IMG/VR virus record: IMGVR_UViG_3300022562_001644
Coordinates: 27,959-91,958 of that record
Length of the DNA stretch: 64,000 bases
Direction: 5' to 3' (one strand)
Source: a virus
The translations under genes and the position numbers were made by a program. This document shows, piece after piece, positions 823 to 58,479 of the stretch (position 1 is its first letter; the number at the start of each line of letters is the position of its first letter). The notes below the pieces were generated by a model. It saw only the letters and a list, made by a program, of their open reading frames with translations. It was not told the DNA's origin and did no database searches.

Positions 823-862
823 GAAACCTCCTCTGCCTGTCTCGAGGAGGTTTCTTTTTTAG
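823..862 (+). terminator. intrinsic terminator
   Basis: GAAACCTCCTC/GAGGAGGTTTC stem followed by TTTTTTAG. Confidence 0.85.
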
Positions 863-878
863 GCATAAGACATGTACA
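862..878 (+). promoter_or_regulatory. putative phage-RNAP promoter (variant)
   Basis: GGCATAAG-ACATG-TACA directly after the terminator and before the replication operon. Confidence 0.6.
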
Positions 879-893
879 CGCAAGGAGGTGTAC

Positions 894-2285
894 ATGTCCA
901 AAAAAATTGCCCTTGTGAAGATGCCTGATAAGGCTCTCCAGAAGACAAGGCAAGAGAAATTCGCTCGCAGTGAGAAACCATTCATGATGGTTCGTGGCGA
1001 GACCATGTCTGAAGAAGACATGCATTTCGAGAGAGCCCTGGAGAGAAGAGGGCGGAGTCCGATTGATGTTCTGAAAGAGTCATCTCGGATACAGCCACCG
1101 CTTGGTAAGGGAGCGATGGTAAACCTTGAGACAGCGTTGAGCTTCCTGTCTGCGTTCGATGAAATCGTTCCGTCAGGCTCAATCAACCCAGCCCTGGCTA
1201 GCATCAAGGTTTGGTTCAACCCGGAGGAGGACTGCAAGCTTTTCATGGAGGGCGGAAGTCACTGTGTGTGGGCGATTGCAGCGATTGATGCTGATCCAAA
1301 GACAGAAAAAATCTTCACAACCCTGGTTCCGGTAAGGCGGGCGAGGAATGTGCTTAGGGCGACAAGTCAGGCACAGAGGAGTGTCATGGTTGCCGTAGAC
1401 GAGGACGGCGTCTGCCTTGGTTCTCACTCCATTCCGTTCGGTGGGAAGATTGCAGATTTTCCCGTTCAGCCAGTAATGCTGGAGCCAATCGCCAGGGCGG
1501 TGATGCCGTCATTCTATTATCGCGATGTAGCATCTAGAGTTGTTCCAGCGAGGGGACTGAACAGGCTTGAGGGCCTTGGGTCCGACAAGATCCTCCTGGA
1601 CTTCGAGTTCTGCGATGTAGACGGAGCCTCGTCCGTGGTCTGTGTCGCAGTGGCAATGGATGGAGACCGAATCCATATGTTCCAGATGCCCAGGATGGTG
1701 ATTGACCCAGAGGCAACGAGAATGCCTCCTGCGGTTCACGTAGATGCGAGTTTCTTCCGGTATCTGACGATGGTGGCAAGCGGAGACTGGACAGCTGTCG
1801 AGCTCGGGGATGAACAGGTCATCGTGAAGGGGAAGGACTTTCTGGTCATTGCTAAGGCGGTCGCCGAGAAGAAGCACTCCCCTACGAGAATTGGTGAGTG
1901 GCGAAAGATAAACGTTTCCCATGAGGGAAGCTGGCTGGTCGAGTCCGAGGGTCTCAGGGCGATGCTCGGAATGATGCCGGGCAAGTCCATTCGCATGAAA
2001 TTCGATTGCATGTACGACTCGATATCGGTCTCCGGCGTAGATAACGAGGGAACTAGGTGCAAGCGATCGATGTCGGCACAGAGGCGTGGAGGAGCGTCCT
2101 ATGTAGACGTTGAGGTGAATAAGAAATACATGCTCGAGGCGATAGATGGGTGCTCTACCAATCTTGTCCGCCTGAGCTTTGACCACGACATGGAAGAACA
2201 GCCGTCCGCCCCAATCGTGGTGCGAGGCGAAGACGAACTATTCAAGGCAATCATCATGCCTATTTCAGGAGATACCGATGCATAG
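894..2285 (+). CDS. DNA sliding clamp (DnaN/beta-clamp)-like protein
   Basis: C-terminus VNKKYMLEAI..VRLSF..APIVVRGEDELFKAIIMPI resembles the DnaN C-terminal pattern; SD AAGGAGG before ATG 894. Confidence 0.55.
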   Translation: MSKKIALVKMPDKALQKTRQEKFARSEKPFMMVRGETMSEEDMHFERALERRGRSPIDVLKESSRIQPPLGKGAMVNLETALSFLSAFDEIVPSGSINPALASIKVWFNPEEDCKLFMEGGSHCVWAIAAIDADPKTEKIFTTLVPVRRARNVLRATSQAQRSVMVAVDEDGVCLGSHSIPFGGKIADFPVQPVMLEPIARAVMPSFYYRDVASRVVPARGLNRLEGLGSDKILLDFEFCDVDGASSVVCVAVAMDGDRIHMFQMPRMVIDPEATRMPPAVHVDASFFRYLTMVASGDWTAVELGDEQVIVKGKDFLVIAKAVAEKKHSPTRIGEWRKINVSHEGSWLVESEGLRAMLGMMPGKSIRMKFDCMYDSISVSGVDNEGTRCKRSMSAQRRGGASYVDVEVNKKYMLEAIDGCSTNLVRLSFDHDMEEQPSAPIVVRGEDELFKAIIMPISGDTDA

Positions 2286-2934
2286 ATGCGGACCAAACTG
2301 CGGCGTATTAAAACGCCTTCGAAAGATTGCCCTACTCAGGGCGAATCCGGTATCGGATGAAATCATTCCTGTTAAGTCATGGTGCCGCGTTTGCGGTGTT
2401 CCAGTATTGCTTGAGGTGATGAACAGTTACGACATGGCCGTCCGACACTTCTACGCCCTGGACGACACGCCGATGGTTCACAAGGCAATCCACGCTGAAA
2501 CCTCTGGCTGGGGAGTTCATTGGCGACTGGACGATGTCTTGGCGACGGTATTTCCCCACCAGCATCCGATTGATGAGCTCTATTGGCCGATGCCGCCCTG
2601 GTGGATTGAGAACTACGGAGAGCCGCAATCCGAGGATCAGGGGATACTTATCCTCAGCCAATCGCAGATTGACAACTACGAGGAGGAGCACATGGACCTT
2701 GAGCTCCATCTGCTCTCTCGGTACCTCCGCGACAATCCCAGGGATGCAGCTCAGCTCGAGGGCGAGTACGGTGAGGTCTGGAGCGCGGAGGACGTTGGTG
2801 AGGACTTTGAGATACTGGGCTTCAAGAGCCCATTTGCCATAGCCAAATGCAGGAAGACGGGGCAGCGAGGGAGCCTGGTCTTTCAGAACAATCCAAGGTT
2901 CTACTTTGGCTGGGATCCAGAGAGGGTCATATGA
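2278..2934 (+). CDS. hypothetical protein
   Basis: AGGAG before ATG 2278; Cys-containing N-terminus; overlaps the upstream stop. Confidence 0.7.
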   Translation: MHRCGPNCGVLKRLRKIALLRANPVSDEIIPVKSWCRVCGVPVLLEVMNSYDMAVRHFYALDDTPMVHKAIHAETSGWGVHWRLDDVLATVFPHQHPIDELYWPMPPWWIENYGEPQSEDQGILILSQSQIDNYEEEHMDLELHLLSRYLRDNPRDAAQLEGEYGEVWSAEDVGEDFEILGFKSPFAIAKCRKTGQRGSLVFQNNPRFYFGWDPERVI

Positions 2935-3125
2935 ACTCCTGTGTGTTTTGCAAGAAGCCAATTGAGCCAGGAACGCCCGCCACGTCCGTTGTTGGTGGCC
3001 AATTCCCCAGGGAAGACCCCGATTTCTTCATGGTGGATGAGACGGTTCTGGCCGAGAGCTACTCGCATCTTCCCTGCCTGATAGGAGCTGTTTCAAGAGG
3101 AGGGGAATCCGGGAACAGATCGTGA
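2931..3125 (+). CDS. small Zn-finger-like protein
   Basis: CVFC...HLPC; ATGA coupling with the upstream gene. Confidence 0.6.
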   Translation: MNSCVFCKKPIEPGTPATSVVGGQFPREDPDFFMVDETVLAESYSHLPCLIGAVSRGGESGNRS

Positions 3126-3158
3126 TAGAGTCTTTGAACAAAGGACATTGCAGTCGCC

Positions 3159-3614
3159 GTGCGGGTCAAGAAGGAACTCAACACACACCACGTCAGTCGC
3201 ATCAAGGGGGAGACGAGCCGAGAGCTCGCCGACCGATGTCCAGATCGACTGGTTGTGTTTCCTTCTTCTCCGTGCACCAACGTCGGTTGCAAATACGCGA
3301 TCAAAGAACCCGGCTATATGAATTGTACGTTTGTCGCGGCAGAGGCTGGAGAGCATACGCTCGAGGCCATCGGCGACATGATGGGCATCACCAGAGAAGG
3401 TGTCCGCCTTATCGAGAGGCGCGCTCTCATAAAGATCCGGGCTCAGCTATCGCAGGATAAGCTCGATGAAACGGACCGGACCACCCAGCGTCAACCATGT
3501 TTTGCTTCAGGGGGAGATAACGTCTACCCCATCAGTGAAGTCAATAAGCTCTCGCACCCAGGTGACATCATTCCAGCTCTCAATGACAGAGAGCTGGGTG
3601 AATGCGGAGGGTGA
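3159..3614 (+). CDS. sigma70 region-4-like HTH protein
   Basis: HTLEAIGDMMGITREGVRLIERRALIKIR matches the sigma region 4.2 consensus TLEEVG..F.VTRERIRQIE.KAL.KLR; Cys-rich segment upstream. Confidence 0.75.
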   Translation: MRVKKELNTHHVSRIKGETSRELADRCPDRLVVFPSSPCTNVGCKYAIKEPGYMNCTFVAAEAGEHTLEAIGDMMGITREGVRLIERRALIKIRAQLSQDKLDETDRTTQRQPCFASGGDNVYPISEVNKLSHPGDIIPALNDRELGECGG

Positions 3615-3876
3615 ATACCGAGAACGCAAAAACCGAGTCATCGTAGAGGTGGTCGGGAAAGACTCTGCTCGAGTGGCAGAGCAGGCGAAGCTTGGTTCAT
3701 GGGTTACCCTGGAAGGTTACTTCCGCTCTGAGCTCTTCAAGGGCCAGGAGTTGACGAAAGTGCGTACTCTCTCTGTTGATATTTGGGAGAGAGATAGTGA
3801 CAAAGAGAGAGAAGCTTCAGGCTCGGTATCAGAAAGAGCTCGACAGAATGGAAAGAGAGCGCTTGCCCGGCGCTAA
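3466..3876 (+). CDS. SSB-like OB-fold protein
   Basis: VNHVLLQGEITSTP..VTSFQLSMTESW..VEVVGK..GSWVTLEGYFRS follows the SSB OB-fold pattern. Confidence 0.7.
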   Translation: MKRTGPPSVNHVLLQGEITSTPSVKSISSRTQVTSFQLSMTESWVNAEGEYRERKNRVIVEVVGKDSARVAEQAKLGSWVTLEGYFRSELFKGQELTKVRTLSVDIWERDSDKEREASGSVSERARQNGKRALARR

Positions 3877-4381
3877 GGAGGAACTCGAGCGAGGCGCGGG
3901 AGAAAAAGGAAAATGGATGCGCTCCCAGAAAGAGAAGATCGAGCGCGCCATAAGGGATGAGGATGAGATCTTGTTTGAGCGAGCTCTCGGGGGCTGGCTG
4001 AAGGGCTGGGGGACGGTCAATACTGAGATCGCCGAGAATTATCGCAAGACCGTAGAGCCCGAGATGTGGGAGCTCCGTTACGTTCGATGGATGAACATCA
4101 GGTTCATGAAGCTCGAGTGCGACATGGGAACTTTTTACATCGTCCCCAGGACTCCGAATCGCAGGCCAAAGACTGACCACTGGTTCACCGTAGACGAGAT
4201 GCTAGACATTCTCGCTGCTCCCGGTGTAGTGGCGTCATCCAAGGCGTTCGGTGCACTGCCCAGTCGCCCGGACTCTACATCCAGGCCTGGGTCTGACGAG
4301 CGCCACCTTGTGGTCAACTTTGCCGACAGTAACAAGCCTGCCGTTTACTACGACTATAGGGGGAGGCCTAGCGATGGCTGA
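3797..4381 (+). CDS. hypothetical protein
   Basis: Long ORF within the operon; GTG 3797 follows GGAGAG. Confidence 0.65.
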   Translation: MTKREKLQARYQKELDRMERERLPGAKEELERGAGEKGKWMRSQKEKIERAIRDEDEILFERALGGWLKGWGTVNTEIAENYRKTVEPEMWELRYVRWMNIRFMKLECDMGTFYIVPRTPNRRPKTDHWFTVDEMLDILAAPGVVASSKAFGALPSRPDSTSRPGSDERHLVVNFADSNKPAVYYDYRGRPSDG

Positions 4382-4871
4382 AAAGGGTTTTGTCGATGCA
4401 CTCATCAAGACAGTGAAAGATTTCGAGAATGCTGTAGCGGTTCGCCCATCCGACAACTACACGATGGGAATACCGGATGTGCTTGGCTGGATTCCGGTGA
4501 ACTCTCCCAGTCCCGTGGTCTGGGCCGTGGCCATAGAGGCCAAGGAGGTTAACCCTCTGATGGAAGACCCGTTCCACAAGGGGCGCCGAACGGGTCGGAT
4601 GCTGAAGCACGAGTTCACAGGCCCCCAGGTATCGATGTTGCGGAAGATGAAGCAGGCTGGGGTCGACGCCTTCGGTCTTGTCAGAGCCTCCAGTGATACT
4701 GCCTTCCGAATCGAGCCGGAAGATATCCCCACCAAGACAGGAAATTTCACGCACGAAGAGCTCGTGAAATTCGGCACCGTGGTCCGGCGAGAAAAAGGCA
4801 TCTGGAAATTCTGGGAGACAGACAATGATCAAGTACCTGGTTCAAGACATCGAGACGATCCCCGAGAGTGA
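4374..4871 (+). CDS. PD-(D/E)xK nuclease, Holliday junction resolvase-like
   Basis: E..F..GIPD..AIEAK..Q motif set; GGAGG SD. Confidence 0.7.
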   Translation: MAEKGFVDALIKTVKDFENAVAVRPSDNYTMGIPDVLGWIPVNSPSPVVWAVAIEAKEVNPLMEDPFHKGRRTGRMLKHEFTGPQVSMLRKMKQAGVDAFGLVRASSDTAFRIEPEDIPTKTGNFTHEELVKFGTVVRREKGIWKFWETDNDQVPGSRHRDDPRE

Positions 4872-5619
4872 GATCGTAGACATGTGGACGCCCACCGATG
4901 CGGACAAGGAGCGCTACCCCGACAGGGCACCCTTCCCGCCAATCTGGTGTCACAAGGTCATCTGTATCGGAATGCTCGCCTTGGACAAAGATTTCAAGGC
5001 CACGAAGGGTGGTTGTGCCGCCGGCGGACTGAGCGGTGGCAAATCCGAGAAGGAGATGATCGAGCGCTGGAGCTACGCGGCATCAGGCAAGATGTGGGAG
5101 CAACCGCGAGCTCTTCGCATGGTGGATTACAACGGCCGGGGTTTCGATGTCCCCGTGCTTCAGACTCGAGCTTTCCGGTATGGAATTCAACTGCCCTGGT
5201 ACTTCGGAAGGCTGCCGGACAACAAGGGAACTATCTCGACGTGGTCCAAGGAATACCGAGACCGCTACGGCGGGCATCATCTTGACATCCAGGAGCTCTG
5301 GACCAACAAGGGCTCATTCCGTTATCCGCACCTGGCCAACCTGGCATGCCTTATGGGCCTGCCTGGAAAGGTCGGGATCGACGGCAGCAAGGTTCACGAG
5401 GCCTACCTGAAGGGGCAGCGCGAGGAAATCGACATCTACTGCATGCAGGACGTCTATCAGACGGCTTTCATCTTCCAGCGGTTCCAGTACATGTCGGGGC
5501 GACTGGCTCTCGAGGGTTACCGCGAGGCGGCCACAAGTGTCCTTGATATCATCGCAAAAGAGGAGGTCCACTCTGATTTCCTTGGGCAAATCGACAAGGC
5601 TGCCGTTCTGCTCGAGTAG
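4825..5619 (+). CDS. 3'-5' exonuclease, PolB exonuclease-domain type (DEDDy)
   Basis: ExoI DIET, ExoII YNGRGFD, ExoIII YCMQD; GLPGKVGIDGSKV. Confidence 0.88.
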   Translation: MIKYLVQDIETIPESEIVDMWTPTDADKERYPDRAPFPPIWCHKVICIGMLALDKDFKATKGGCAAGGLSGGKSEKEMIERWSYAASGKMWEQPRALRMVDYNGRGFDVPVLQTRAFRYGIQLPWYFGRLPDNKGTISTWSKEYRDRYGGHHLDIQELWTNKGSFRYPHLANLACLMGLPGKVGIDGSKVHEAYLKGQREEIDIYCMQDVYQTAFIFQRFQYMSGRLALEGYREAATSVLDIIAKEEVHSDFLGQIDKAAVLLE

Positions 5620-5633
5620 TGTAGAATCGGGCC

Positions 5634-5987
5634 ATGCCCACGCTGAAGATTGACGGAACGCTGTCCTTCCCCATTGGGTCCGAGTCGAATCTTTCGAGTC
5701 GCACGTTTTCCGCACAACTCTTCTACGATGAGCGAAGCTTGGATGACGTGTCGATTCCTGGTGCTGTAGTTGACCAGGATCTCATGAGTCTTATCGCGGA
5801 TGCGAAGGCCTGTTACATCGAGGTCGTGTCGGGCGAGGGAGAGCTAAAAATCAATGGCTCAGCTCCAACCTTGCCGATCTCGGTGGATGGTGGTTTCTGG
5901 GTCTGGTTCAATCCCAACGGAGGATTGACCGCCCTCTCCATCACCACGGCCGCAGCCGCAAAGCTGCGCGTCTACATGTTCACTTGA
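5634..5987 (+). CDS. hypothetical beta-rich protein (leaderless)
   Basis: 117-aa ORF; TAGAAT at 5622-5627 lies 6 nt before the ATG. Confidence 0.7.
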   Translation: MPTLKIDGTLSFPIGSESNLSSRTFSAQLFYDERSLDDVSIPGAVVDQDLMSLIADAKACYIEVVSGEGELKINGSAPTLPISVDGGFWVWFNPNGGLTALSITTAAAAKLRVYMFT

Positions 5988-6008
5988 TCAAAACGTCTTT
6001 TTTTAGCA

Positions 6009-6037
6009 TTGACGCTTTGATGTCCCTTTCGTAGGTT
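6009..6037 (+). promoter_or_regulatory. sigma70-type promoter, leaderless transcript
   Basis: TTGACG-17 nt-TAGGTT, then 6 nt to ATG 6044. Confidence 0.7.
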
Positions 6038-6043
6038 TGGGCC

Positions 6044-6556
6044 ATGCCATCACGCTTATTTGACGCTCGAGTAAAGCTAATGAGCCAGGAGGAGGCTCGA
6101 GCGTCCCGCGAGGAAGCGAAGAAGAGAGCCCAGGAGGCGGATGACGCCATCAAGGAGCTTGAGGAGACGGACGCCGCCAGCGTCAAGCTTAGAGAGACCC
6201 TGGCCGCGGCACAGGCTGTGGCGCCGATCGTCTACAAGGAGTACCGCCGGCCTGGCTCGAAGTGGATGATCGAGCACTCCCAGGTAGGCCAAGACTACAT
6301 CTTCCAGGTCCACACCCTGAAGCCGCCGAAAATCGAGGTCCAGGGAGTACTTGGGCTGATGATCAGCGCAATGGACGTGATCTTCCCAAGATCGTTGGAT
6401 ATTCGCTATGTTCCGCCGAGCCCGCGGTACAAGCTTCAATTTTACACAATCAGGGTAGAGAAGGTGGTGGGACTGCCTGGATGGTCAACGGCCATCGAGC
6501 GGGCACTGGCCTCCCTGTCAGTCATGGACGCCTGGCCTCGCCAGGAGCGCGGCTAG
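6044..6556 (+). CDS. hypothetical protein
   Basis: 170-aa ORF with a coiled-coil N-terminus. Confidence 0.7.
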   Translation: MPSRLFDARVKLMSQEEARASREEAKKRAQEADDAIKELEETDAASVKLRETLAAAQAVAPIVYKEYRRPGSKWMIEHSQVGQDYIFQVHTLKPPKIEVQGVLGLMISAMDVIFPRSLDIRYVPPSPRYKLQFYTIRVEKVVGLPGWSTAIERALASLSVMDAWPRQERG

Positions 6557-7645: not shown

Positions 7646-10480
7646 CTAGACGAGAAGGGTCAGCTTGATGTTGTTGAGTGGAATCGGAATGGAGATGTCG
7701 ATGTCGATCTCCACCGTATCCGGCGCGATATCGGACTCCTCGATCCTGGTCAGAGAGCCGCCGCGGAGCGGAGCTCCGATTCGAGCAACTCGTTGATCTA
7801 GCAGGAAAGTGATGCCGCTCTGCCCCCTGGTCTTGAGTAGGTCCAACAGACCGTCGGTGATGTTGTAAATACCCAGGAACGGGCGATAGAGGCGACGGAA
7901 GAATCGCGCGATGAGGTCGACGTTCTTCGTGACCGAGAACTCCTGGAAGTAGATCGTGGTCAGGTCGGTGGTCAACTGGTGGCGAACAATGAGAGCAGCG
8001 TCCGGCACTGGCTGAACGAAGATCATGTTGCCGCCGCCGGCGATAGTGTCGAGCTGGACGTCGCTGAAGATGTCATCCGAGTTCTCGCGACCAACGAATC
8101 CAGTCAGGGCAAGATTGGTGAAGCCCTGCTGGCTCGGCAGTCCGGCGGTTAGGCCAGAGAGAACCGGTGCAGCAAAGTACCCTGGGATGAGAGTTGCTTC
8201 GCCGTTGACCGACACGGCAAGCCTGTCCGGCCAGGTGTGAACGACACGGCGGCTTCCAAAGGAGCTCGCGTATCCGGCCAGGAAGTCCGCTTGCTCATTG
8301 AGCGAGAGGTCTTTCGTGATGCGGTACTCTACATCGGTAAGGGTGCCACCGAATCCAGCGGTCGGATCGGAGTCGAGGGTGATCTGAGACTCAGAGTCAA
8401 TCGATGCAATCGGATGACGAGTGCCAGTAATGAAGGCATCCTCGGTCGCATTTGGCGTGACCGACACGACATCGAGAGTCGTTAAGGTCGGAGTGGTGAG
8501 ACCGTTGAATTCCTCGGTGACCGGGACAGTGCTGTTGTCTGTCCGAACGACCGTAGAGGAGAGAACAGCCTCGATGATGTGATCGGCGTTGTTGGCGCCG
8601 TTGGTAGCACCAGCAACACGCAGCTTCCGACCGATGTCGTCATCAGTGAAGATCGCGCCGAGGATAGTCCACTGCCGGCTCGGTCCGTCGACGGAGTCGG
8701 AGACAGCATCGCGAGCAGGCTCACGATTGATGTCGTACAGGGTCGCCGCATGGCCGGCAAATGTTTCGTCAGCCCCGGGAACCTCGATGGTGGTGATGGT
8801 CGTAGAGCTGAGGACGTTTCCTACGGTGAAGACGCCGTCATTGAGCCCACCGACAGTTCCGGTGATGTACAGCAGGCGACCGATATCAGCCGGCGTGAAC
8901 GCGCCATTGGTGAAGGTCCAGGTCTTGGTGGCCTGGACAACATTGTCGACACCGTCATCGGTGGTGATGGCTCGAGCCAGGTCAACAATCCAGGCACGGG
9001 TGCCTGCGGCCATGAGCTCGGCGCCGCCCGGCGGAGTCGGGGTCACACCGACCTTCGCAGTGCTCACGATGGAGGCAATTGCGTAGGCGATATCATTGGC
9101 CGGGCTGGTCGCACCGCGGACCAGGATGGTTCTCCCGACGTCTGCGGCAACGAACTCGCCGTTGGTGATCTGGATTTCATCCGGGCCAGCGGTGAAGTAG
9201 TCTCGCTCGTCCGGAGTTACCGAACGCTGGACACCTTCAACAGCGGTGTACGAAATGATTTCCAGCAAGGAGCCAACAGTCACGTCATCGGTGATGAAGC
9301 TTCCGTTGTCTGGGTCGCGGAACTGAGTGTTTTCGGTTCCGGCGATTCCATTGCCGACGCCGGAGGATGTCTCGGTGCCAATCCCGCTGGGCGGGACAAG
9401 AACTTCGACTGTGCGAATCTTTCGGTTGAAGAAGCAGACCCTTTCCCTGCCGACGGTTGATACAGACATGCCTTCGACATGAGCCTTGGCGAGCTGGTGA
9501 ACGGCAGTGTTGTGGGTCATTACGGCAATGCCGTAGACGTCCTTGTTCTCAAGGAACTCCAGGGCGTCCTGCCAAGCCTGCTCTTCATTCGAGAGAAACC
9601 CTCCCCCCAGGCCAGTAAAGCTAACCTCGGTGGTGGTGTTCTGCAGGGCGAGGTTTACGCCGTAAGCGCCGACGTTCGAGGGAACAATGTTGCCAATCCC
9701 GAAGACGGCCTCAAGAGAGTCTAGGTCGGTGAATACCGTAAGGTCTCCGGCTAAGTCAGGTCGGAGAGCTCTCCAGGAGAGCAGAACGGTTCCCTCAACG
9801 ACAGGAAGAGGGGTCGCATCGTTGCTTTGAAGGCCGGGGAGGACGTCGACGCTGGTGGCGGTCTTGGTGATGCCGTTGGCAGCAAAGTCTTCTTCTGAGT
9901 ACTCTTCTTCCGCTCGGTACTCAAGGACTCGGTACTCGACGTTGGTTAGGGGAAGAGCACTCTTCCACTCGGCAGCGAGAACAAGGGTGTTGTCATCGGT
10001 CTTCCTGATAACAAGCTTACGCCCCTGGTCGGCTGGATCTATGCCAACTGCATCGATGATGTCGACGTAGAAGACGGGGGCACCCTCTGCGTCAGGATCG
10101 AACGATGAAAAGGCGCCAGCCGTGGCATCGGTGAAAAGATTTGGAGTGTCGAGGACTCCAGTAATCTTGCTGGCCGATGGCAGCGGGGGTTCTTTTACGA
10201 GGTAGACGTCCTGGAGCTTGAAGCCAACGCCCTTGTGGGCACTAGCCTCGGCTTCATCATCGGGAGCATCGCCGAGGTCAACAATTGCACCCACCTCGAG
10301 CCCGACATAGGGATACGAGGTGATGGAAAGGTTGTCCTCAGAGTAGACACCGGCGTTGACGTCGTCTTCGATTTGGTAAGCCGGTCCGGCTACCAATGCG
10401 GGAAGAGACGGAAGCGCAAGTGCGGCGGCGGCTTGCTGGAACTCTTGGATTACTTCAACTGCAGGTCGGCGATATGCCAT
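7646..10480 (-). CDS. tail sheath protein with inserted repeat domains
   Basis: MAYRRPAVEV start; sheath-type C-terminus (VRHQLTT..EFSVTKNVD..IPIPLNNIKLTL); 944 aa. Confidence 0.85.
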   Translation of the reverse strand: MAYRRPAVEVIQEFQQAAAALALPSLPALVAGPAYQIEDDVNAGVYSEDNLSITSYPYVGLEVGAIVDLGDAPDDEAEASAHKGVGFKLQDVYLVKEPPLPSASKITGVLDTPNLFTDATAGAFSSFDPDAEGAPVFYVDIIDAVGIDPADQGRKLVIRKTDDNTLVLAAEWKSALPLTNVEYRVLEYRAEEEYSEEDFAANGITKTATSVDVLPGLQSNDATPLPVVEGTVLLSWRALRPDLAGDLTVFTDLDSLEAVFGIGNIVPSNVGAYGVNLALQNTTTEVSFTGLGGGFLSNEEQAWQDALEFLENKDVYGIAVMTHNTAVHQLAKAHVEGMSVSTVGRERVCFFNRKIRTVEVLVPPSGIGTETSSGVGNGIAGTENTQFRDPDNGSFITDDVTVGSLLEIISYTAVEGVQRSVTPDERDYFTAGPDEIQITNGEFVAADVGRTILVRGATSPANDIAYAIASIVSTAKVGVTPTPPGGAELMAAGTRAWIVDLARAITTDDGVDNVVQATKTWTFTNGAFTPADIGRLLYITGTVGGLNDGVFTVGNVLSSTTITTIEVPGADETFAGHAATLYDINREPARDAVSDSVDGPSRQWTILGAIFTDDDIGRKLRVAGATNGANNADHIIEAVLSSTVVRTDNSTVPVTEEFNGLTTPTLTTLDVVSVTPNATEDAFITGTRHPIASIDSESQITLDSDPTAGFGGTLTDVEYRITKDLSLNEQADFLAGYASSFGSRRVVHTWPDRLAVSVNGEATLIPGYFAAPVLSGLTAGLPSQQGFTNLALTGFVGRENSDDIFSDVQLDTIAGGGNMIFVQPVPDAALIVRHQLTTDLTTIYFQEFSVTKNVDLIARFFRRLYRPFLGIYNITDGLLDLLKTRGQSGITFLLDQRVARIGAPLRGGSLTRIEESDIAPDTVEIDIDISIPIPLNNIKLTLLV

Positions 10481-11189: not shown

Positions 11190-11707
11190 GTAGTCGGGTT
11201 CTCATCTTCGACTTCCTTCAAAGCCTCTTCGAAGGCGTCGCCCAGTCTATTCCTAACCGTGTTGGTTACGGTGTTTTTCATGGATTCGACGGAAGCCTTT
11301 TCTGACTGCTCACGGAAGATGTTCTCGAGCTCGATGCGACGGAATACGAGGTCCGATCGGCCATCTGACCGAGACCTGATTTCGGGGACTCCAGTGCTGG
11401 CCTCGAACAAAGACTCTACCGATACGGCATCGACCCCCTCAGACTTGTCATGTTGAGCCATCTTCGAGGTGGCCCCAAGAATTTCGCTGGCATTGTCGGA
11501 GGTAATAACGAAGCGATTCCCTTCCGTCTTAACCTTGACTGCTGCACCGGGAGCTCTGTTGAGCCCTGGATCTGCCTGAGTGTTCAGATCTCTCTCAATG
11601 TTCTTGCCGATCTTGTCGTTCACCCTCTGCAAAACGTCTTCGTAATTATCGAAGGCCGTCGACTTTCTCAGGTCGAATCTGAACCAGTTGTTGAAGTTCG
11701 TGCTCAT
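11186..11707 (-). CDS. hypothetical neck-region protein
   Basis: Translationally coupled ORF in the neck cluster. Confidence 0.55.
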   Translation of the reverse strand: MSTNFNNWFRFDLRKSTAFDNYEDVLQRVNDKIGKNIERDLNTQADPGLNRAPGAAVKVKTEGNRFVITSDNASEILGATSKMAQHDKSEGVDAVSVESLFEASTGVPEIRSRSDGRSDLVFRRIELENIFREQSEKASVESMKNTVTNTVRNRLGDAFEEALKEVEDENPTT

Positions 11708-11952
11708 GAGAGGCTGGAAAAGTTCGTCAGGTGATTGGGGGTGGTCAGCGGAGTTGGTGCCACATTGTATTGAGCGGTGGCGGTTAACTGCGGCTGGCCA
11801 GACTTGAGTCCAGTCCTTGCGCCTGATCCCTGTGTTGCATCCATCACGGACTGGATCGCAGACGCGAGGTCATATCCGGCCGGTCGCTCATGCTGAGGGT
11901 AAGCTGCTATCTTGATGAGCTCGTCGGCAAATCCGCGCATGAAGTGATTCAT
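11704..11952 (-). CDS. small tagged cargo protein
   Basis: Starts MNHFMRGFADELIKIAA. Confidence 0.7.
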   Translation of the reverse strand: MNHFMRGFADELIKIAAYPQHERPAGYDLASAIQSVMDATQGSGARTGLKSGQPQLTATAQYNVAPTPLTTPNHLTNFSSLS

Positions 11953-13798: not shown

Positions 13799-13849
13799 GG
13801 CTTACGTTACGCTCCGTCCGGTACTTGCGTCAAGTGACGTGATGATCTC

Positions 13850-26794: not shown

Positions 26795-26883
26795 CCAGGA
26801 TCCTCGCTTCTTGGTTCTACTCGAAGGTATAAGGATAGAGTATCAGGGTCAAGAAAGCGGAAATACAGTCAAAGGAGAAGCAA

Positions 26884-27555: not shown

Positions 27556-27564
27556 TCGGTTCCT

Positions 27565-27581
27565 GGCATAAGAAGGATGAA
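27565..27581 (+). promoter_or_regulatory. putative phage-RNAP promoter
   Basis: GGCATAAG-AAGGA-TGAA. Confidence 0.7.
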
Positions 27582-27594
27582 AGGAGAACTTCTT

Positions 27595-28044: not shown

Positions 28045-28046
28045 GC

Positions 28047-40563: not shown

Positions 40564-40598
40564 TTCGCCATCTTACATCAGGGCACTCAAAGTTCCTT

Positions 40599-40616
40599 GG
40601 CATAAGACCAATGAAC
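40599..40616 (+). promoter_or_regulatory. putative phage-RNAP promoter
   Basis: GGCATAAG-ACCAA-TGAAC. Confidence 0.7.
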
Positions 40617-41040: not shown

Positions 41041-41063
41041 GCCCAAGATAGAAGCCACAGTCA

Positions 41064-41573
41064 ATGAGCGCAATAGCAGGAACCATCGCCTTCTTTGTCA
41101 TCGAAGAAGAGGAGCAACGAATACATGACGAACCAGAACCGGAGGCCGGTGACCTGGTATTGAACTCTGGGTCATTCCTCGTCTGTGAAACTGGCGTAAC
41201 AGCCAAGCTGTCCCCGCCGCTTGGCTTTCTGTCGCGTCACTACGAATGGAAATGGGTGCCTCCGGGAATCGGTGCCCTACGGCTAGCAGTACTGGGAGAG
41301 GGGGACACGCCAAGTACCCTCTACCGGTTCATGAACGAGAGGCAGAAAGATCAGCTAGAGATGGAGCTTGGGAAGGTCTACTGGACCTGCGAGGAACACA
41401 AAGATTTCCTCGAGCACAACTCCACGCTGGCCGATGATGTCTCAAGGATATGGGACTGGATGCCAAGCCTGGTATCCAAGTGTCCATATCAGTCAGTCAT
41501 TCACGACATCAACATGGTTCGAGATATGTCGGACCAGGAGCTAGACAGCTACGTGATGGCAAAATTGCTGTAG
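41064..41573 (+). CDS. hypothetical protein
   Basis: 169-aa ORF downstream of ssb. Confidence 0.65.
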   Translation: MSAIAGTIAFFVIEEEEQRIHDEPEPEAGDLVLNSGSFLVCETGVTAKLSPPLGFLSRHYEWKWVPPGIGALRLAVLGEGDTPSTLYRFMNERQKDQLEMELGKVYWTCEEHKDFLEHNSTLADDVSRIWDWMPSLVSKCPYQSVIHDINMVRDMSDQELDSYVMAKLL

Positions 41574-41582
41574 TATCTGCCC

Positions 41583-42104
41583 ATGGCAGATAGACTGTAT
41601 GACTACAGTGCGCTGACAGACGAACAGCGAAAGCATCTGGAGACTCTCGAGACAGAGATTCAACAGGCGCAAAAGAAGATACTGGACGAAGCTCCAGACC
41701 ATCTTCTGCAGCTCGGAGGAATCCTCCGACGCAGCACCGAAACAGAGAGTCTCGAAGAGTTCCGCAGCTACCTCCAGAAACATTCTATTGATATCGCTGG
41801 CGGCGAACGAGAGCTTGCACTGTTTCGTGACCTCCTCATCATCCGACGCATTGATTTGAAAGATCTAGAACCAGAGGCTAGGCAGCGACTCCGCTTCCAC
41901 ACCCTGATTCAGGAGAATCCAAAGAACATGAGCTCGGACTACAGGGCAGCGATCAGCGAGGGAGATATCCCAAACTGTCGTGACTGTAGATGGTTCGTCA
42001 CTCCACCAAATGACGGACAAGAGGGGTCAGACAAGGCTTGCGTTGAGTTTGGGACCAAGGGCGCCGACCAGGCGTGCTACGGGTTCACTAACAAGCTCAA
42101 CTAA
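41583..42104 (+). CDS. hypothetical protein with C-terminal Cys cluster (leaderless)
   Basis: CRDC..C..C; TAGTAT 6 nt before the ATG. Confidence 0.7.
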   Translation: MADRLYDYSALTDEQRKHLETLETEIQQAQKKILDEAPDHLLQLGGILRRSTETESLEEFRSYLQKHSIDIAGGERELALFRDLLIIRRIDLKDLEPEARQRLRFHTLIQENPKNMSSDYRAAISEGDIPNCRDCRWFVTPPNDGQEGSDKACVEFGTKGADQACYGFTNKLN

Positions 42105-42142
42105 AAAGAACACAACAGCTGAGTGTTCTTTGCCGGTACGGG

Positions 42143-42174
42143 GATGTGGCTCCCCCTGTACCGGTTTTTTTAGC
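42143..42174 (+). terminator. intrinsic terminator
   Basis: CCGGTACGGGG...CCCTGTACCGG followed by T7-AGC; preceded by a second hairpin AAAGAACAC/GTGTTCTTT. Confidence 0.85.
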
Positions 42175-42197
42175 CCCATAATCAGTGGTCGTTTTCG

Positions 42198-42215
42198 GGC
42201 ATAAGAATAGTGAAC
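42198..42215 (+). promoter_or_regulatory. putative phage-RNAP promoter
   Basis: GGCATAAG-AATAG-TGAAC. Confidence 0.7.
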
Positions 42216-42234
42216 CCAAAGAAAGGAGTACTTC

Positions 42235-42549
42235 GTGCTCAAAGACACTGTATTCACAGTCTTCCTGAGTGACCTGTCATTCATCGCAAGAACCTTGTGG
42301 AATGGCCACTTGGTCGCCAAGCATAACCAAAGAGTAATGCGCGGCGACCTGTGGCCGCTCTACAAGATTACGTCGAGCGATGGAGATGCTGTCACCTACA
42401 AAAGACTGTGTCCCCAATGCTGCGAACACGACATCAAACTCAATAAAGACTATTTTGAGTTCATGGCCTCGGATAGAGGCAAACGACGGCACGTCGAAAA
42501 GTGCGACAGATGCGGCAAAGCCGCACCCATGAAGAACGCGTCTAAGTGA
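42235..42549 (+). CDS. small Zn-finger protein
   Basis: CPQC..CDRC; AAGGAG SD before the GTG. Confidence 0.65.
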   Translation: MLKDTVFTVFLSDLSFIARTLWNGHLVAKHNQRVMRGDLWPLYKITSSDGDAVTYKRLCPQCCEHDIKLNKDYFEFMASDRGKRRHVEKCDRCGKAAPMKNASK

Positions 42550-42579
42550 CGCCCGAGCTGGCCGGAGCCAGTATGTAGA

Positions 42580-42636
42580 AGCCCGTACTACGTGCGGGTG
42601 GAAAGAGCCCGTACTACGTGCGGGTTCTTTTTTAGC
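42580..42636 (+). repeat. 20-bp direct repeat of a hairpin, forming a terminator
   Basis: AGCCCGTACTACGTGCGGGT at 42580-42599 and 42606-42625, followed by TCTTTTTTAGC. Confidence 0.85.
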
Positions 42637-49926: not shown

Positions 49927-49945
49927 GCGTCACGAGCTCTTTTCT

Positions 49946-49963
49946 GGCACAAGGTTTTTGAAC
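49946..49963 (+). promoter_or_regulatory. putative phage-RNAP promoter
   Basis: GGCACAAG-GTTTT-TGAAC. Confidence 0.6.
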
Positions 49964-50072
49964 GAGGAAGCCCACGCCCGCAAAGGAGATTATCACCTGG
50001 GAAAACCCAACAATAACGTCTTTGTAATAGCTTCTATCCAAGAAAGCGAAAAAGCACTAGAGGAGGACCTGA

Positions 50073-50375
50073 ATGGTCGCAGCAATCGGCGCAGTGATCG
50101 CCGCAAACGAGTACATCGAGCAGGAGATGGCAATCTCCAGAGCTCAAGAAAATAAAGAGGCAGAAGACTCGCCTCGCACAAGGAGAATCCGCCACAGCCT
50201 TATTTCGGACGCGCTCGAGCTCGGCGTCCGAATGGCAGCCCTGTCGTTCGTGGTCTTCAGCGGACTTACCATTGGACTCAAGATGTTTGGCCTAGCCGCC
50301 AGCGCCATGGGATTTCTGGCCACGAAGGTCTTGGCCATCGATGCTGGGGCGATGCCACAGGGAGCGCCTTCGTAA
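50073..50375 (+). CDS. small membrane protein
   Basis: GAGGAGG SD; hydrophobic C-terminal half. Confidence 0.7.
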   Translation: MVAAIGAVIAANEYIEQEMAISRAQENKEAEDSPRTRRIRHSLISDALELGVRMAALSFVVFSGLTIGLKMFGLAASAMGFLATKVLAIDAGAMPQGAPS

Positions 50376-50403
50376 AGAAAAATCAACAAGGAGAAGCTAC
50401 CCA

Positions 50404-50874
50404 ATGGTGGGAGCAGTAATAGGCGCACTCGCCTACTTTGATGAAGTAGAGCCAGAGTTGTTCGCTGTACCAGACCGTCCAAAACAGCAGGGGCCGCGAA
50501 TGGTTGACCTGAGAAGGCTTGCGGGATCCGTTGTTCCCGCCCACGGCCTGATCATCAATAGCCGTGGAATATCAGCCGGAGGGTTTGGCGGTCGAGTGTT
50601 TATGTGGATGAGGAAGCTGTTGGGTGCAGTTTCCGTAGCAGGCATGATCGCCCTAGGTCTGTTTGTCTACACAGAGTTCACCCACGCCTGGCAAAAGAGG
50701 GGGTTGCCTACAATACCAATCTCGGCCCTGTCTGCGCTCGACGAAGCAGCGCAACAGGGCAGGTCGTCAGGTTCAGCCACGACCACTGGTCGGGGCGATG
50801 TGTACCAGCCAGGAGTAAGGCGCGAGTCTGGGGCTCAGAGAAACCTGAGTCTCCTTAATGACTACATTGGTTAG
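50404..50874 (+). CDS. membrane protein
   Basis: AAGGAG upstream of ATG 50404; one TM helix. Confidence 0.65.
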   Translation: MVGAVIGALAYFDEVEPELFAVPDRPKQQGPRMVDLRRLAGSVVPAHGLIINSRGISAGGFGGRVFMWMRKLLGAVSVAGMIALGLFVYTEFTHAWQKRGLPTIPISALSALDEAAQQGRSSGSATTTGRGDVYQPGVRRESGAQRNLSLLNDYIG

Positions 50875-52374: not shown

Positions 52375-52648
52375 GCTTAGGCGCCTTTTCCCAGTATTGG
52401 ACCACGAGAATAACTTCCTCGGAAGTCGTCACGACTAGGTCCTGCCCTGTACCTTCGCGAACAGTATTCTTTCGTTCGTACTCGCGCATCATCTCAATCT
52501 TGATGCCTGAGGAAGCGTCATTTGCTCGATTGCGAAGATCTGCATATCGCTCAAGGTCCGCATCTTCGAACATCGAAAATTTCTCGATGCGAAAATTACC
52601 TAGATTGCTGTTACTGCTACCGAATTTTACCTCGGTGACCTTAGCCAT
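52301..52648 (-). CDS. hypothetical protein
   Basis: TGATG-coupled to the portal gene. Confidence 0.65.
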   Translation of the reverse strand: MAKVTEVKFGSSNSNLGNFRIEKFSMFEDADLERYADLRNRANDASSGIKIEMMREYERKNTVREGTGQDLVVTTSEEVILVVQYWEKAPKRAKGDNKDEIFEAQKDWSSERSAG

Positions 52649-54696
52649 CAGATGCTTCCATCCTCGCGCCGCGGGGGCGCAACCTGCGGGTTCGGACGCA
52701 TCTTGTCTGCTGCGTCTGCAGCTGTGCCGCCCGGACCCATCTGTGTGAGTAGCTGCTCAACCAGGCGAGCCATGTTCGGCATTCTCTGGCGGAGCTCAGC
52801 GAGAACCTGATCCCTTTGAGCCTGCGGCATCTGAGCCAGCCGATTAGCCCACTGCTTGGCGATCTTGGAGGCATCCATTTCAACTACTTGGCCCCCACCA
52901 CCGGCAGACTGGCCTGTTGCCCCCACTTCCTGAGCCTGGACCTGCGCCGCTTGCCCCTGCGCCGCTTGAGCGGCCATCTGCTGGTCCTCGGCGAGCTCAG
53001 CCGACGTTGCCGGCGACGCCCCTTCCTGGGGCTGCTGTTGGCCGCCTTGGCCCTCCTGGGGAGGCTGGCCCTGCTGGGGCGCCTGCTGGGGCTGGCCTCC
53101 CTCCTGCGCAGCCTGCTGCGCCGAGGCCTGATCCTGCCCCTGGCCCTCAAGTCCAGGCTGCCCTCCGGACATAGCGCCCTGCGCCTCCTGGAAGGCCTCT
53201 TGCGCCCTGGCCTGGTACTTGGCCGACAGGATCTGTGCCTCGCCCTGCGCCTCCGTCTGGGCTTTCTGGACCAGCGCCTGAATTCGATTCCGCTGTTCGG
53301 TCTCTTTCTCGATCATCTTGAGTTCATCGTCGTAGTCGAACCCGAGCTCGGTAAGCATCGTGTGATCGGAGATCTTGTTGGCCGCGTTCAGCTGGATGAC
53401 GATCTGCTTTCGCTGAATATCGTCGGCCATCTTGAACTCGGTGAAGCCGATGTCCACATCGGGAAGACCGAGGTACAGCTGGATGCGGTTCTTCGCCCAG
53501 TTAACGAACCGGAGAAGAAGCCGCCGATACATGAGGAAGTGGTTCTCCAGGGTCCTGAGGCTGACGCTGGAGCCAGACCAAGAAAGGCCGCCGAAGACGA
53601 ATTCAATGGGTACGCCCATGCCACCCGTGATCTCCTTGTTCGTGACTTCGATTTCTGGGCCAAGAAGAAGAGCTCGGCCGTCGCCACCCAGCCTCTCGAA
53701 TCCCAAGGGCACCGACACGACCGAGATGTAGTTGGGGTCGATACGCCATTTGCGGATCTCCGACTGCACCGTGCCTTGCCAGCTGGACAGGTTGACGTGC
53801 TGGTAGGGGTCTTGCTGTGCGTTTGCCTGCGGGAAGATGAACTCAAGCGGCATAATGCGCTGGAGAGCGATCGCCTCCTGGGCTCGCCGAAGAACGTAGA
53901 GGTAGAACATGCGGCCCATCGAGTGAATGATGAGCGGCTTGCCCCAGCCCATGTCCTGCTCTGCGAGCGTTGGCCTCTTGAAGTGGAAGAGGTTTTGGTC
54001 GGAGAGCGCAATGTCACGACGCTTTTTGAGCGCCATGAGAAACACTTCGGGGATGTCGACCAAGACCTCACGAACGCCACCCTGTATCGCCTTGCGAATT
54101 TTGTTTGGAATCTTGTAGCGGTACTTCGACTTGCCGGTAATCGGGTTGTAGTGAATGTCGATATTTTTGGGATCCCATCGAACAAAGTTAATCCCCGTTT
54201 GGTCCCTGATGGGCCTGTCGACGATTTTCCCAACGACCTGTTCTGTGCAGCTTGGGCACTGGAGGTGAAATTCGAAGTTGGTGAACTTGTACTTCAGTCG
54301 CTCGTCCGCCAGCTTGTGAAGCGAATCGCACTTTGGGCAGCGAATCCATCGGACGAATGGAAGGTTAATACTGACAAAAGCATTGCCGTAACAGAAATAG
54401 TCGAGGCCGATCTCAATGAGGAACGGCTTCAGGTTCAGCGTGTCCTCGAGGACGTTCTTCCATCCTTCGCGGACGTGCTTCTCTTCGGCGTTGTAGATGA
54501 AGTTCGTGACTGGATACTCGGCGATCTTTGTGACCACCGAACCAATCATCGGGTCCTTGTAGAAGAAGTACTGACACCACCGAAACAGTTCCTTGACTGT
54601 CGGCGGCATGTACGTCTGCGCGATATCGAAGAAGGGGGACGGATAAACCGTTCCCCTCCGTCGATCACGGGCAGTCGTTATGCTTCCTCCGGCCAT
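52648..54696 (-). CDS. portal protein (putative)
   Basis: GLDYFCYGNAFV, FVRWDPKNI, GWGKPLI, GMGVPIEFVFGG; 682 aa with a Q-rich tail. Confidence 0.8.
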   Translation of the reverse strand: MAGGSITTARDRRRGTVYPSPFFDIAQTYMPPTVKELFRWCQYFFYKDPMIGSVVTKIAEYPVTNFIYNAEEKHVREGWKNVLEDTLNLKPFLIEIGLDYFCYGNAFVSINLPFVRWIRCPKCDSLHKLADERLKYKFTNFEFHLQCPSCTEQVVGKIVDRPIRDQTGINFVRWDPKNIDIHYNPITGKSKYRYKIPNKIRKAIQGGVREVLVDIPEVFLMALKKRRDIALSDQNLFHFKRPTLAEQDMGWGKPLIIHSMGRMFYLYVLRRAQEAIALQRIMPLEFIFPQANAQQDPYQHVNLSSWQGTVQSEIRKWRIDPNYISVVSVPLGFERLGGDGRALLLGPEIEVTNKEITGGMGVPIEFVFGGLSWSGSSVSLRTLENHFLMYRRLLLRFVNWAKNRIQLYLGLPDVDIGFTEFKMADDIQRKQIVIQLNAANKISDHTMLTELGFDYDDELKMIEKETEQRNRIQALVQKAQTEAQGEAQILSAKYQARAQEAFQEAQGAMSGGQPGLEGQGQDQASAQQAAQEGGQPQQAPQQGQPPQEGQGGQQQPQEGASPATSAELAEDQQMAAQAAQGQAAQVQAQEVGATGQSAGGGGQVVEMDASKIAKQWANRLAQMPQAQRDQVLAELRQRMPNMARLVEQLLTQMGPGGTAADAADKMRPNPQVAPPRREDGSI

Positions 54697-57229: not shown

Positions 57230-57230
57230 T

Positions 57231-58376
57231 CTATGCCTCGCCGGAGATGACCTGTTTGATCAGGACTTTCTCAGGCGTAGGCAACGACTCGAAGATCTCG
57301 GTAGGGTGCTCCGAGAACTGGCGGGCGAAAGCCTCTCCAAGGTATCCCGCCAGTTTCTTCGATGTGGCTGCTTTCCTGAGATCTTCCTCAGTGATGGTCC
57401 GCCCATCTACTTCAGCAGACCAGCCAGTGGCAATCTTGTCCATTGTGCTGGCATAAGCATCAGTAAGGCCGCGGTCGTAGTACTTACTAAGTCCTGTCGA
57501 CTGGTCGAATGTCTGCAACGCATTCGCCATGTCTTCTGGAGTGGTCTCGCTCAGAGATGCGGCCAGCTTGTCCAGCACATCTCGAGCACCCGGATTTCTT
57601 GGCAAAAGAGATTTGCGCTGCTCGAGGTGTGCATGAACGTTCCTGTTCCAGTTCGTCGAGGCCCACTTCTGGAGCGTGTCGCTGGCTGATACATCAACCC
57701 CGAGCTCTTCGGCTCGATTTTGCACCGACACAGCAAACCTGTGCCGATACTCAGAAGGGAGATCCTTGGCATACTTTTCGAAATACGCGGCCGCCATCTT
57801 TACATGGTGCTGATCAGGCATCGCATATTTCCGAATAACAGAGCCATCACCCTGCCGAATGACCAAAGCAAAATGTTCGTTTGGCAGCTCGGTCATTGCA
57901 TTCATCTCGACCGCCGCTGTCTTTTCCATTCGCAATTCCCGCTGCGCCAACTTGCGCAACATCCAACCACTCTCGGACCCTTCAACGAAGGTGTTCGATC
58001 CGGCCTCGCCCTCTTCGACTCGGGCAGCATAGGCATCAACGAGGGGAGAAGCTAGAACGCCGTAGGCGTCGCATGCCTTCTTGATGAACTTTGCGGCGAT
58101 GAATCGGGCAGGGAAAGCCAGCTTCTCGTGAGTCTGGTCGAAGTACTGTGCCGACAACCAGGCATTGCCTGGATCGTTGACAGGGAATTTGCGGAAAACC
58201 GATGCCCTCTTCGTGAGAACGATGAGACCAAACTCGGAGTCAGGTAATCCCTGATGCTGCTCTGGCGTGAGCACCGTGACGTTTGCATTCCCCATCTCTA
58301 CGGGCATGGAGACCTTCGTCATGAGTTCATGTTGGGTGTCGTCGTAGAAATCAATGACGGCTGCAGCAATCGACAT
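57231..58376 (-). CDS. head-associated protein with two LPxxxF..RK(F/Y)P repeats
   Basis: Two ~65-aa repeats separated by EKTA; GAGGA SD before ATG 58376. Confidence 0.7.
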   Translation of the reverse strand: MSIAAAVIDFYDDTQHELMTKVSMPVEMGNANVTVLTPEQHQGLPDSEFGLIVLTKRASVFRKFPVNDPGNAWLSAQYFDQTHEKLAFPARFIAAKFIKKACDAYGVLASPLVDAYAARVEEGEAGSNTFVEGSESGWMLRKLAQRELRMEKTAAVEMNAMTELPNEHFALVIRQGDGSVIRKYAMPDQHHVKMAAAYFEKYAKDLPSEYRHRFAVSVQNRAEELGVDVSASDTLQKWASTNWNRNVHAHLEQRKSLLPRNPGARDVLDKLAASLSETTPEDMANALQTFDQSTGLSKYYDRGLTDAYASTMDKIATGWSAEVDGRTITEEDLRKAATSKKLAGYLGEAFARQFSEHPTEIFESLPTPEKVLIKQVISGEA

Positions 58377-58405
58377 ACCTGTGTTCCTCAAAGGCGGTTT
58401 CGCTC

Positions 58406-58435
58406 ACGGTAGCACGGCCCCGAAAAGGAGGTCAA
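58406..58435 (-). promoter_or_regulatory. sigma70-type promoter for the portal operon
   Basis: TTGACC-18 nt-TACCGT with extended TG. Confidence 0.6.
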
Positions 58436-58461
58436 TCACGCTAAAGCACTCGACATTTCCT

Positions 58462-58479
58462 GGCATAAGAATGTTGAAC
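58462..58479 (+). promoter_or_regulatory. putative phage-RNAP promoter
   Basis: GGCATAAG-AATGT-TGAAC. Confidence 0.7.

Follow-up and report, generated by a model that had tools for sequence, protein, structure and literature searches.

The 8-bp sequence GGCAYAAG is, judged by comparison of sequences, a strand-specific promoter-like signal of a phage lineage, and it heads the non-structural plus-strand units of the phage analyzed here. The DNA under study, hereafter the window, is a stretch of 64,000 nt (bases 27,959-91,958) from a single 91,958-bp viral contig (IMG/VR record IMGVR_UViG_3300022562_001644; 56% GC; CheckV completeness ~51%). All coordinates are those of the window unless marked "genome". 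On balance we favour the reading that the GGCAYAAG promoters are recognized by a phage sigma factor bound to the single-chain beta-beta' RNA polymerase (RNAP) that the phage itself encodes. An earlier note on this DNA had proposed GGCA(T/C)AAG-N5-TGAA as the cognate promoter of the encoded RNAP, the two forming a potential orthogonal pair. What stands of this proposal is a lineage-specific promoter-like signal, kept from 39 to 68% GC together with a beta-beta' RNAP. The pair made of two parts does not stand: because a phage sigma on the RNAP likely reads the box, the system would have three parts rather than resemble the two-part pair of T7.

Distribution of the motif in the phage genome

The phage (G000) is of the myovirus type, with genes for the tail sheath (7646-10480, -), the large terminase (34264-36033, -) and the portal (52648-54696, -). 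A megablast search with 12 kb of the sequence in 50,697 phage records found no match and hence no near-identical published phage. According to the gene map, the left arm (genome 1-34.5 kb) is nearly all plus strand and non-structural. The right arm carries the structural genes and the RNAP gene on the minus strand and is broken by four small plus-strand islands (Table 1). Each island starts at a divergent gap and therefore needs its own promoter. GGCAYAAG is the one element common to these divergent gaps, and every island is headed by a copy of the motif (26826/27565, 40599/42198, 49946 and 58462).

The five exact copies of GGCAYAAG-N5-TGAA listed in the earlier note (27565, 40599, 42198, 49946 and 58462) were all found on the plus strand, and so were the two variants, at 862 (GGCATAAG-ACATG-TACA) and at 26826 (GGTATAAG). 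All seven lie in gaps between genes, 16 to ~113 nt 5' of plus-strand genes led by a Shine-Dalgarno (SD) sequence, with the SD following the copy within 3-100 nt. As for the functions ascribed to the downstream genes, SSB after 40599 is well matched (Pfam E 1.9e-35), the clamp-like protein after 862 gave weak matches (PHROG E 1.4e-5, Pfam 0.004), and the rest had no family matches.

The exact pattern occurs five times in the window and in none of 100 dinucleotide-preserving shuffles. A sixth exact copy is located at genome 14575, and in the whole contig all 12 of the GGCAYAAG 8-mers are on the plus strand. We also performed an unbiased k-mer scan of G000 and its closest relatives, G001 (111.7 kb, 68% GC) and G002 (66 kb, 62% GC). 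The top intergenic-enriched 8-mer of the three was GGCATAAG, with 16 of 23 copies falling in the 7.6% of sequence between genes (p 2e-13). A weight matrix built from the sites of the relatives only had the copies in the window as its top matches in G000. It gave seven matches above 15 in this genome, all on the plus strand and intergenic, one of which is outside the window (genome 14575).

An extra GGCATAAG is present at 57450-57457 (+), antisense inside a 381-aa minus-strand gene. It is kept in G001 at the same, conserved peptide and is thus probably constrained by coding, although it may alternatively be an internal antisense promoter; we did not count it among the promoters.

Conservation across the RNAP-bearing lineage

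Relatives were collected by way of their RNAP, which gave 36 viral contigs or loci. G001 and G002 are collinear with G000, and since their proteins are only 35-95% identical to those of G000, their intergenic DNA has diverged. The 8-mer is found at orthologous gaps, at least eight in G001 and six in G002, and lies on the same strand in 13/13 and 6/6 copies, respectively. A more distant genome, G003, is complete (189 kb, terminal repeats; 39% GC) and encodes an RNAP 34% identical to that of G000. Here GGTATAAG ranked first among the intergenic 8-mers, with 20 of its 25 copies between genes (p 5e-19), again on the strand opposite to that of the RNAP gene and the structural genes. The strand bias was seen again in G004, with 25 copies on one strand vs 4 on the other, and in Salmonella phage Arash (OQ632216.1), where GGTATAAG is present 30 times on one strand vs once on the other (controls 4 and 6), the RNAP genes being on the latter. 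Across the 36 loci, 52 copies were opposite to the RNAP gene strand vs 7 on the same strand.

The gap upstream of the RNAP gene is a recurrent position of the motif. A divergent GGYATAAG or a one-base variant was present there in most of 30 related loci (GGYATAAG in L001-L006, L008, L009, L013, L016, L017 and L020; one-base variants in L007, L010, L019, L021 and L028). G000 has both features of this class, namely intergenic enrichment opposite the RNAP/structural strand and a divergent copy beside the RNAP gene. In G005, another RNAP-bearing genome, the best intergenic 6-mer was TAGACT.

Anatomy of the motif

The 8-mer was placed at -14 to -7, and its surroundings were compared over 32 sites from the GC-rich clade and 23 from G003. 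Upstream of the box, the GC-rich clade shows C-29 (25/32), A-28 (24/32) and C-27 (19/32). The T/C-rich tract that had been noticed before the copies was confirmed, T being enriched at -20 to -18 over the 32 sites. The start region in this clade is marked by T-1 (22/32), G+1 (25/32), A+2 (22/32) and A+3 (22/32), with G or A at +1 in 31/32. In G003 the box is preceded by TTTTAT and followed by AA, with T-1 in 20/23 sites and, at +1, a purine in every one (23/23). The sites of Arash also show N5-T-G/A, and in close relatives the TGAA part relaxes to YGAR. This T-1/R+1 pattern suggests that N5-TGAA marks the region where transcription starts and is no second recognition box at fixed spacing.

The earlier note held that the motif does not match sigma-70, a statement that we could not uphold. 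GGYATAAG matches TGnTATAAT at G-14, A-11, T-10, A-9 and A-8, and at T-12 in the AT-rich relatives, so that the box resembles a -10 element of the sigma-70 family, with a putative T(-1)/R(+1) start 7 nt after it. It departs from the hexamer of an extended -10 promoter: the expected A-11 occurs in 32/32 sites, but G takes the place of T at -7 in 32/32, in 23/23 sites of G003 and in Arash, and C-12 is found in 31/32 sites of the GC-rich clade. With regard to TG at -15/-14, G-14 never varies; T-15 is seen in 9/32 sites of the GC-rich clade and in 18/23 of G003.

Two standard promoter classes were tried and rejected. The canonical bipartite sigma-70 promoter (TTGACA-17-TATAAT) was dropped because a consensus scan detected no -35 at any copy, the upstream information being the CAC at -29 to -27. 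Over 30 kb around the copies, the sigma-70 consensus scan gave fewer matches than chance (3 vs 7.2, 0 vs 3.1 and 0 vs 1.1), none of them at the motif. The earlier note had set sigma-54 aside, and our data agree: nothing is conserved 10-11 nt downstream of GG (~0.1 bit). A sigma-54 promoter (TGGCAC-N5-TTGC) was likewise rejected on the machinery, since none of G000, G001, G003 and Arash had a Sigma54_DBD match above the cut-off.

Promoter-like sites of a second class, TTGAC(C/G)-N17/18-TA(C/A)C(G/T)T, were spotted by eye and then collected by a pattern search (Table 1). Orthologous sites are located at 55767, 68328 and 94258 in G001 and at 14313, 26627, 59101 and 6439 in G002. Each genome had only 6 matches to a relaxed TTGACS pattern, of which 3 to 5 are intergenic. 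These sites look like ordinary bacterial promoters, and because they coexist with GGCAYAAG in the same phage, the latter appears to be a distinct grammar. This suggests two promoter classes on two strands. A k-mer scan for a second over-represented k-mer on the structural strand revealed only terminator T-runs, and tRNA T-loops in G003.

The two classes meet at 26826, where the motif variant shares bases with the -10 of a TTGACC-type promoter-like site on the opposite strand. The orthologous sequences are GGTATAAG in G002 and GGTATAGG in G001, and GGTATAAG, the form of the 26826 copy, is the consensus form in the AT-rich relatives. We kept 26826 as a probable weak promoter because its TAAG part is kept in G002 though it is outside the TTGACS-class consensus.

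RNA polymerase and sigma factors of the lineage

The RNAP belongs to the bacterial beta-beta' type and not to that of T7, and its single chain runs through the bacterial beta domains and then the beta' domains. The beta' segment aligns to residues 175-519 of bacterial beta', including the clamp helices and NADFDGD. The lineage also encodes two groups of sigma-70-family proteins, a small gp10-like group and an RpoD-like, gp196-like group (Table 1). Region 3, which in known sigmas reads extended -10 elements, is retained in the gp10-like group. The sigma of G001 matches PHROG sigma (E 9e-9 over residues 38-273) and is orthologous to Arash gp10 (E 1e-21). In the virions of Arash, beta, beta' and gp10 rank with the most abundant proteins (PMC10585845).

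On the G000 contig, which is ~51% complete, Sigma70_r2 had no match and thus no full sigma was found. The only sigma-related gene there is that of the 151-aa region-4 protein (3159-3614), which lies in a motif-headed operon with the clamp-like gene 894-2285. The protein has hardly anything beyond its region-4 helix-turn-helix. The gene of the gp10-like sigma in G001 is located ~14 kb beyond the point that matches the end of the G000 contig, so its absence from the contig is uninformative.

The tag GFxDELxKxA was looked for in the RNAP as a clue to packaging and was absent. The peptide G-F-x-D-E-L/F-x-K-x-A was observed in six proteins, encoded at 11704-11952, 17523-18239, 20829-21254, 22367-23140 and 25512-25847 (-) and at 28110-28619 (+).

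Proposed mechanism and alternatives

In the mechanism that we propose, the sites would be promoters of non-structural units (early or middle; replication-type). In each, an upstream RRS-CAC-T near -32 to -26 would be optional, and a spacer rich in T and pyrimidines (-20 to -15) would lead to the box GG-C/T-A-T/C-A-A-G, which is like an extended -10. After five bases without conservation would come T(-1) and then G or A (+1), with transcription starting inside "TGAA". The reader of the box would be a phage sigma-70-family sigma, for which the small gp10-like protein, virion-borne in Arash, is the best candidate. It would be bound to the phage single-chain beta-beta' RNAP, as an injected or early holoenzyme, which we take as the most economical of the readings. 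G-7 and C-12 would keep the sites apart from the sigma-70 promoters of the host. The sigma-70-family sigmas of the lineage and the retained clamp-helix region of beta' make a phage sigma on the RNAP the likely recognition component. Since the lineage carries sigmas, factor-independent recognition of the T7/N4 type, by the polymerase alone, is unlikely.

A broader proposal is more tentative, and we would not put it at even chances. In phages of ~180-190 kb, an RNAP, single-chain or in two pieces, and a small sigma, both delivered in the virion, may together read GGYATAAG, with its G-7, on one strand as a self-contained sigma-dependent system, in which a second factor switches the enzyme. This factor, an RpoD-like sigma or a region-4-only factor, would direct the same enzyme to TTGACS-N17/18-TAnnnT on the structural strand. 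If true, this would be a minimal alpha-less holoenzyme of the bacterial type, whose promoter set would be orthogonal to that of the host.

Several points weigh against recognition by a phage sigma on the phage RNAP. The exact 8-mer was unenriched in G005 (2 vs 2) and in Vibrio phage D69 (9 vs 5; controls 5 and 10). Because both of these carry the RNAP and both sigmas, the link between motif and machinery is not one-to-one. The motif is, as it appears, limited to a clade or diverged in these two phages, in which promoter and sigma may have diverged together. Within G000, the upstream CAC element is absent from the copies at 862, 27565 and 42198. The box keeps 5-6 of the 9 consensus positions of the extended -10, which makes the host holoenzyme a possible reader. 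The presence of a sigma in G000 is extrapolated from G001, and the lineage has two sigmas with the motif assigned to neither. Promoter function, start point, sigma identity and the choice of the phage core over that of the host are all inferred from sequence.

The same sites would be used if a phage sigma redirected the core enzyme of the host and the phage beta-beta' served another gene class. Phage sigmas act on the host core in T4 (gp55), SPO1 (gp28) and phiEco32 (gp36), and such appropriation is the common phage strategy; the sigmas of this lineage are of the bacterial type, and the sigma-70-consensus-like class on the structural strand could be the own promoter set of the phage RNAP. We regard this alternative as rather unlikely, because the phage RNAP retains the clamp helices on which a sigma docks, and because in Arash the RNAP and gp10 are both abundant in virions, which suggests joint action on the entering DNA. 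Conservation of the motif in both 39%-GC and 68%-GC settings is also easier to explain if both partners travel with the phage. Another possibility is that the holoenzyme of the host primary sigma reads the sites as early promoters of the extended -10 type and that the phage RNAP takes over other genes. The shared G-14, A-11, T-10, A-9 and A-8, T-12 in the AT-rich relatives, T-15 in G003 and the classical start geometry would fit, but -7 and -12 are, with A-11, the hexamer positions that matter most to primary sigmas, and here -7 is invariably G and -12 is C in all but one site of the GC-rich clade. Moreover, no TTGACA-like -35 is present, the 8-mer is kept across differing GC contents and presumably differing hosts, and ordinary TTGACS-N17-TAnnnT sites are found on the other strand. 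We consider this possibility distinctly improbable.

We regard it as very improbable that the motif is not a promoter at all and instead is a signal in the RNA (a processing site or an element of the 5' untranslated region) or an operator bound by a DNA-binding protein of the phage. Strand specificity is compatible with an RNA signal, and the copies at 862, 27565 and 42198 are in co-directional arrays with possible read-through RNA. The other four copies, however, are in divergent gaps with no upstream transcript on the same strand, where a promoter is required. Start codons follow the copies at differing distances, from 16 to ~113 nt, and two copies come directly after strong terminators (862 and 42198). 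The box is not palindromic and has the composition of a -10 element, with Y-1/R+1 at the canonical distance.

Features in and around the window

The coordinates of the motif copies, of the elements beside them and of the transcription-related genes are collected in Table 1. The copy at 862 is the fifth best in the genome by matrix score (19.7) and has orthologous copies at G001 41373 and G002 1345.

The intrinsic terminators of the plus strand have in common a run of T7-8 with AGC or A after it (TTTTTTTAGC), and TTTTTTAG is itself enriched between genes. The convergent gap 42550-42631, after gene 42235-42549, contains two tandem GCCCGTACTACGTGCGGGT hairpins that resemble a bidirectional terminator. 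About 35 nt after the 49946 copy, a segment with GGAG-N8-CACCTG (49990-50072, +) is kept in G000, L001 and L003. A small open reading frame (ORF) read from its CTG has a shared ..(P)GFVV/NVFVI.. stretch and may be a CTG-initiated small gene.

Table 1. Motif copies, neighbouring elements and transcription-related genes (window coordinates unless marked "genome" or given for another phage).
Feature	Position	Strand	Remarks
Terminator hairpin and U-tract	823..854	+	abuts the 862 copy; fold -18.1 kcal/mol, z -5.25
Motif copy, GGCATAAG-N5-TACA	862..878	+	directly after an intrinsic terminator; heads clamp-like operon 894-6556
Sigma-70 region-4 helix-turn-helix protein, 151 aa	3159..3614	+	Pfam Sigma70_r4 E 8.9e-8; PHROG sigma E 6e-6; orthologues in G001 and G002
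TTGACS-class site	6009-6037	+	heads one plus-strand gene
TTGACS-class sites	13804-13833, 26824-26852, 58406-58435	-	head structural-strand operons
Motif copy, weaker variant GGTATAAG	26826..26842	+	in divergent gap; sole candidate promoter for Zn-ribbon gene 26926-27555
Motif copy, exact	27565..27581	+	SD and ATG at 27595 directly after; matrix score 24.8; orthologues G001 69057, G002 27342
Upstream element CACTCA	40584..40589	+	9 nt before box, about -29 to -24
Motif copy, exact	40599..40615	+	heads ssb unit 40660-42104; orthologues G001 76863, G002 42211, L001 15911
Terminator hairpin and U7	42132..42165	+	upstream of the 42198 copy; fold -22.3 kcal/mol, z -4.33
Motif copy, exact	42198..42214	+	heads 104-aa gene 42235-42549; 32 nt after terminator stem; best matrix score in genome, 28.7
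Single-chain beta-beta' RNAP, 2063 aa	43735..49926	-	Pfam Rpb2_6, Rpb2_3, Rpb1_1/2/4/5
Upstream element CACGAG	49931..49936	+	9 nt before box
Motif copy, exact, GGCACAAG form	49946..49962	+	divergent to RNAP gene, 20 nt from its start codon
Upstream element CACTCG	58447..58452	+	9 nt before box
Motif copy, exact	58462..58478	+	heads 81-aa gene 58541-58786; orthologues G001 94285, G002 59129, L005 1268
Plus-strand islands in the minus-strand arm	26926-28619; 40660-42549; 50073-50874; 58541-58786	+	from the gene map
Terminators with shared T-run	854-861, 28076-28090, 42165-42175; genome 23590-23600, 33955-33965	+	
gp10-like sigmas	Arash gp10; G001 ORF L047:10283-11110 (-); G003 149832-150530 (+)	RNAP/structural strand	region 3 retained
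gp196-like, RpoD-like sigmas	G003, G004, G005, Arash		

Comparison with known systems

The motif is similar to the extended -10 promoter (TGnTATAAT) in that a single element, spanning about -15 to -7, dominates while a -35 is weak or lacking, and in that a putative start at a purine after a pyrimidine would lie 7 nt downstream. It differs in its invariant G-7, in C-12 in this clade, in G-13, in T-15 at 9/32 sites and in having CAC near -28, not TTGACA at -35. Promoters of group-3 sigmas have the consensus GTTT-N12-14-GGGTAT (sigma-B/sigma-F) or TAAA-N15-GCCGATAA (sigma-28). Set against this general consensus, the motif shares a long -10 with a G-rich 5' end and then (T)ATA(A), and the spacer here is ~12-14 nt. 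The candidate gp10-like sigma is also like those of group 3, being small (234-275 aa) and without region 1. The sequence of the upstream element, on the other hand, is different.

In the late transcription of T4 (TATAAATA; gp55/gp33/clamp) and in phiEco32 (gp36), a phage sigma-like factor reads a single 8-9-bp box at -10 with no -35. The clamp-like and region-4-only genes of G000, which are in one operon, recall gp45 and gp33 of T4. The systems of T4 and phiEco32 use the host core and drive late genes, whereas G000 brings its own core and its box would drive non-structural genes.

phiKZ and AR9 resemble G000 in having a phage RNAP of the cellular beta/beta' type, promoter motifs of their own and a virion-packaged enzyme for early genes (PMC7598289, PMC7824862). 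Their RNAPs are split into 4-5 subunits and lack a sigma (PMC7824862). The motifs that they use are AT-rich or on the template strand. In contrast, beta and beta' are fused and bacterial-like in G000, and sigma-70-type sigmas are present in its lineage. In a 2021 survey of jumbo phages, cellular-type RNAP and sigma-70-type sigmas were found only in separate groups (PMC7824862). Full-text literature searches on GGCATAAG or GGTATAAG as a phage promoter motif and on fused or sigma-bearing phage RNAPs retrieved no publication in which the motif is described.

If the reading is true, GGCAYAAG would be the promoter code of a widespread and almost unstudied lineage that unites a cellular-type RNAP with sigma-70-type sigmas, and would supply a rule by which the early and middle units of these genomes could be annotated. 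It would also offer a natural case in which to test how G-7 is read by a factor of the sigma-70 family, at a position where T is near-invariant for primary sigmas. The beta-beta' fusion, the small sigma and the 8-bp box would together make an attractive orthogonal expression module of three parts.

The nearest known thing is the motif in Arash, which is undescribed in the paper on that phage, where promoters are not mentioned (PMC10585845). Arash has the same 8-mer except for T-12, with 30 of 31 copies opposite the RNAP, N5-T-G/A after the box and positions before non-structural genes. Its RNAP is homologous to that of G000 (34.5% identity) and likewise adjoins the portal gene. It differs from G000 in that the RNAP is encoded in two genes (gp206 and gp216) and that the host and the virion proteome are known. 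Because Arash shares the motif and grows on Salmonella Typhimurium ATCC 14028, the proposed reading is directly testable in this phage.

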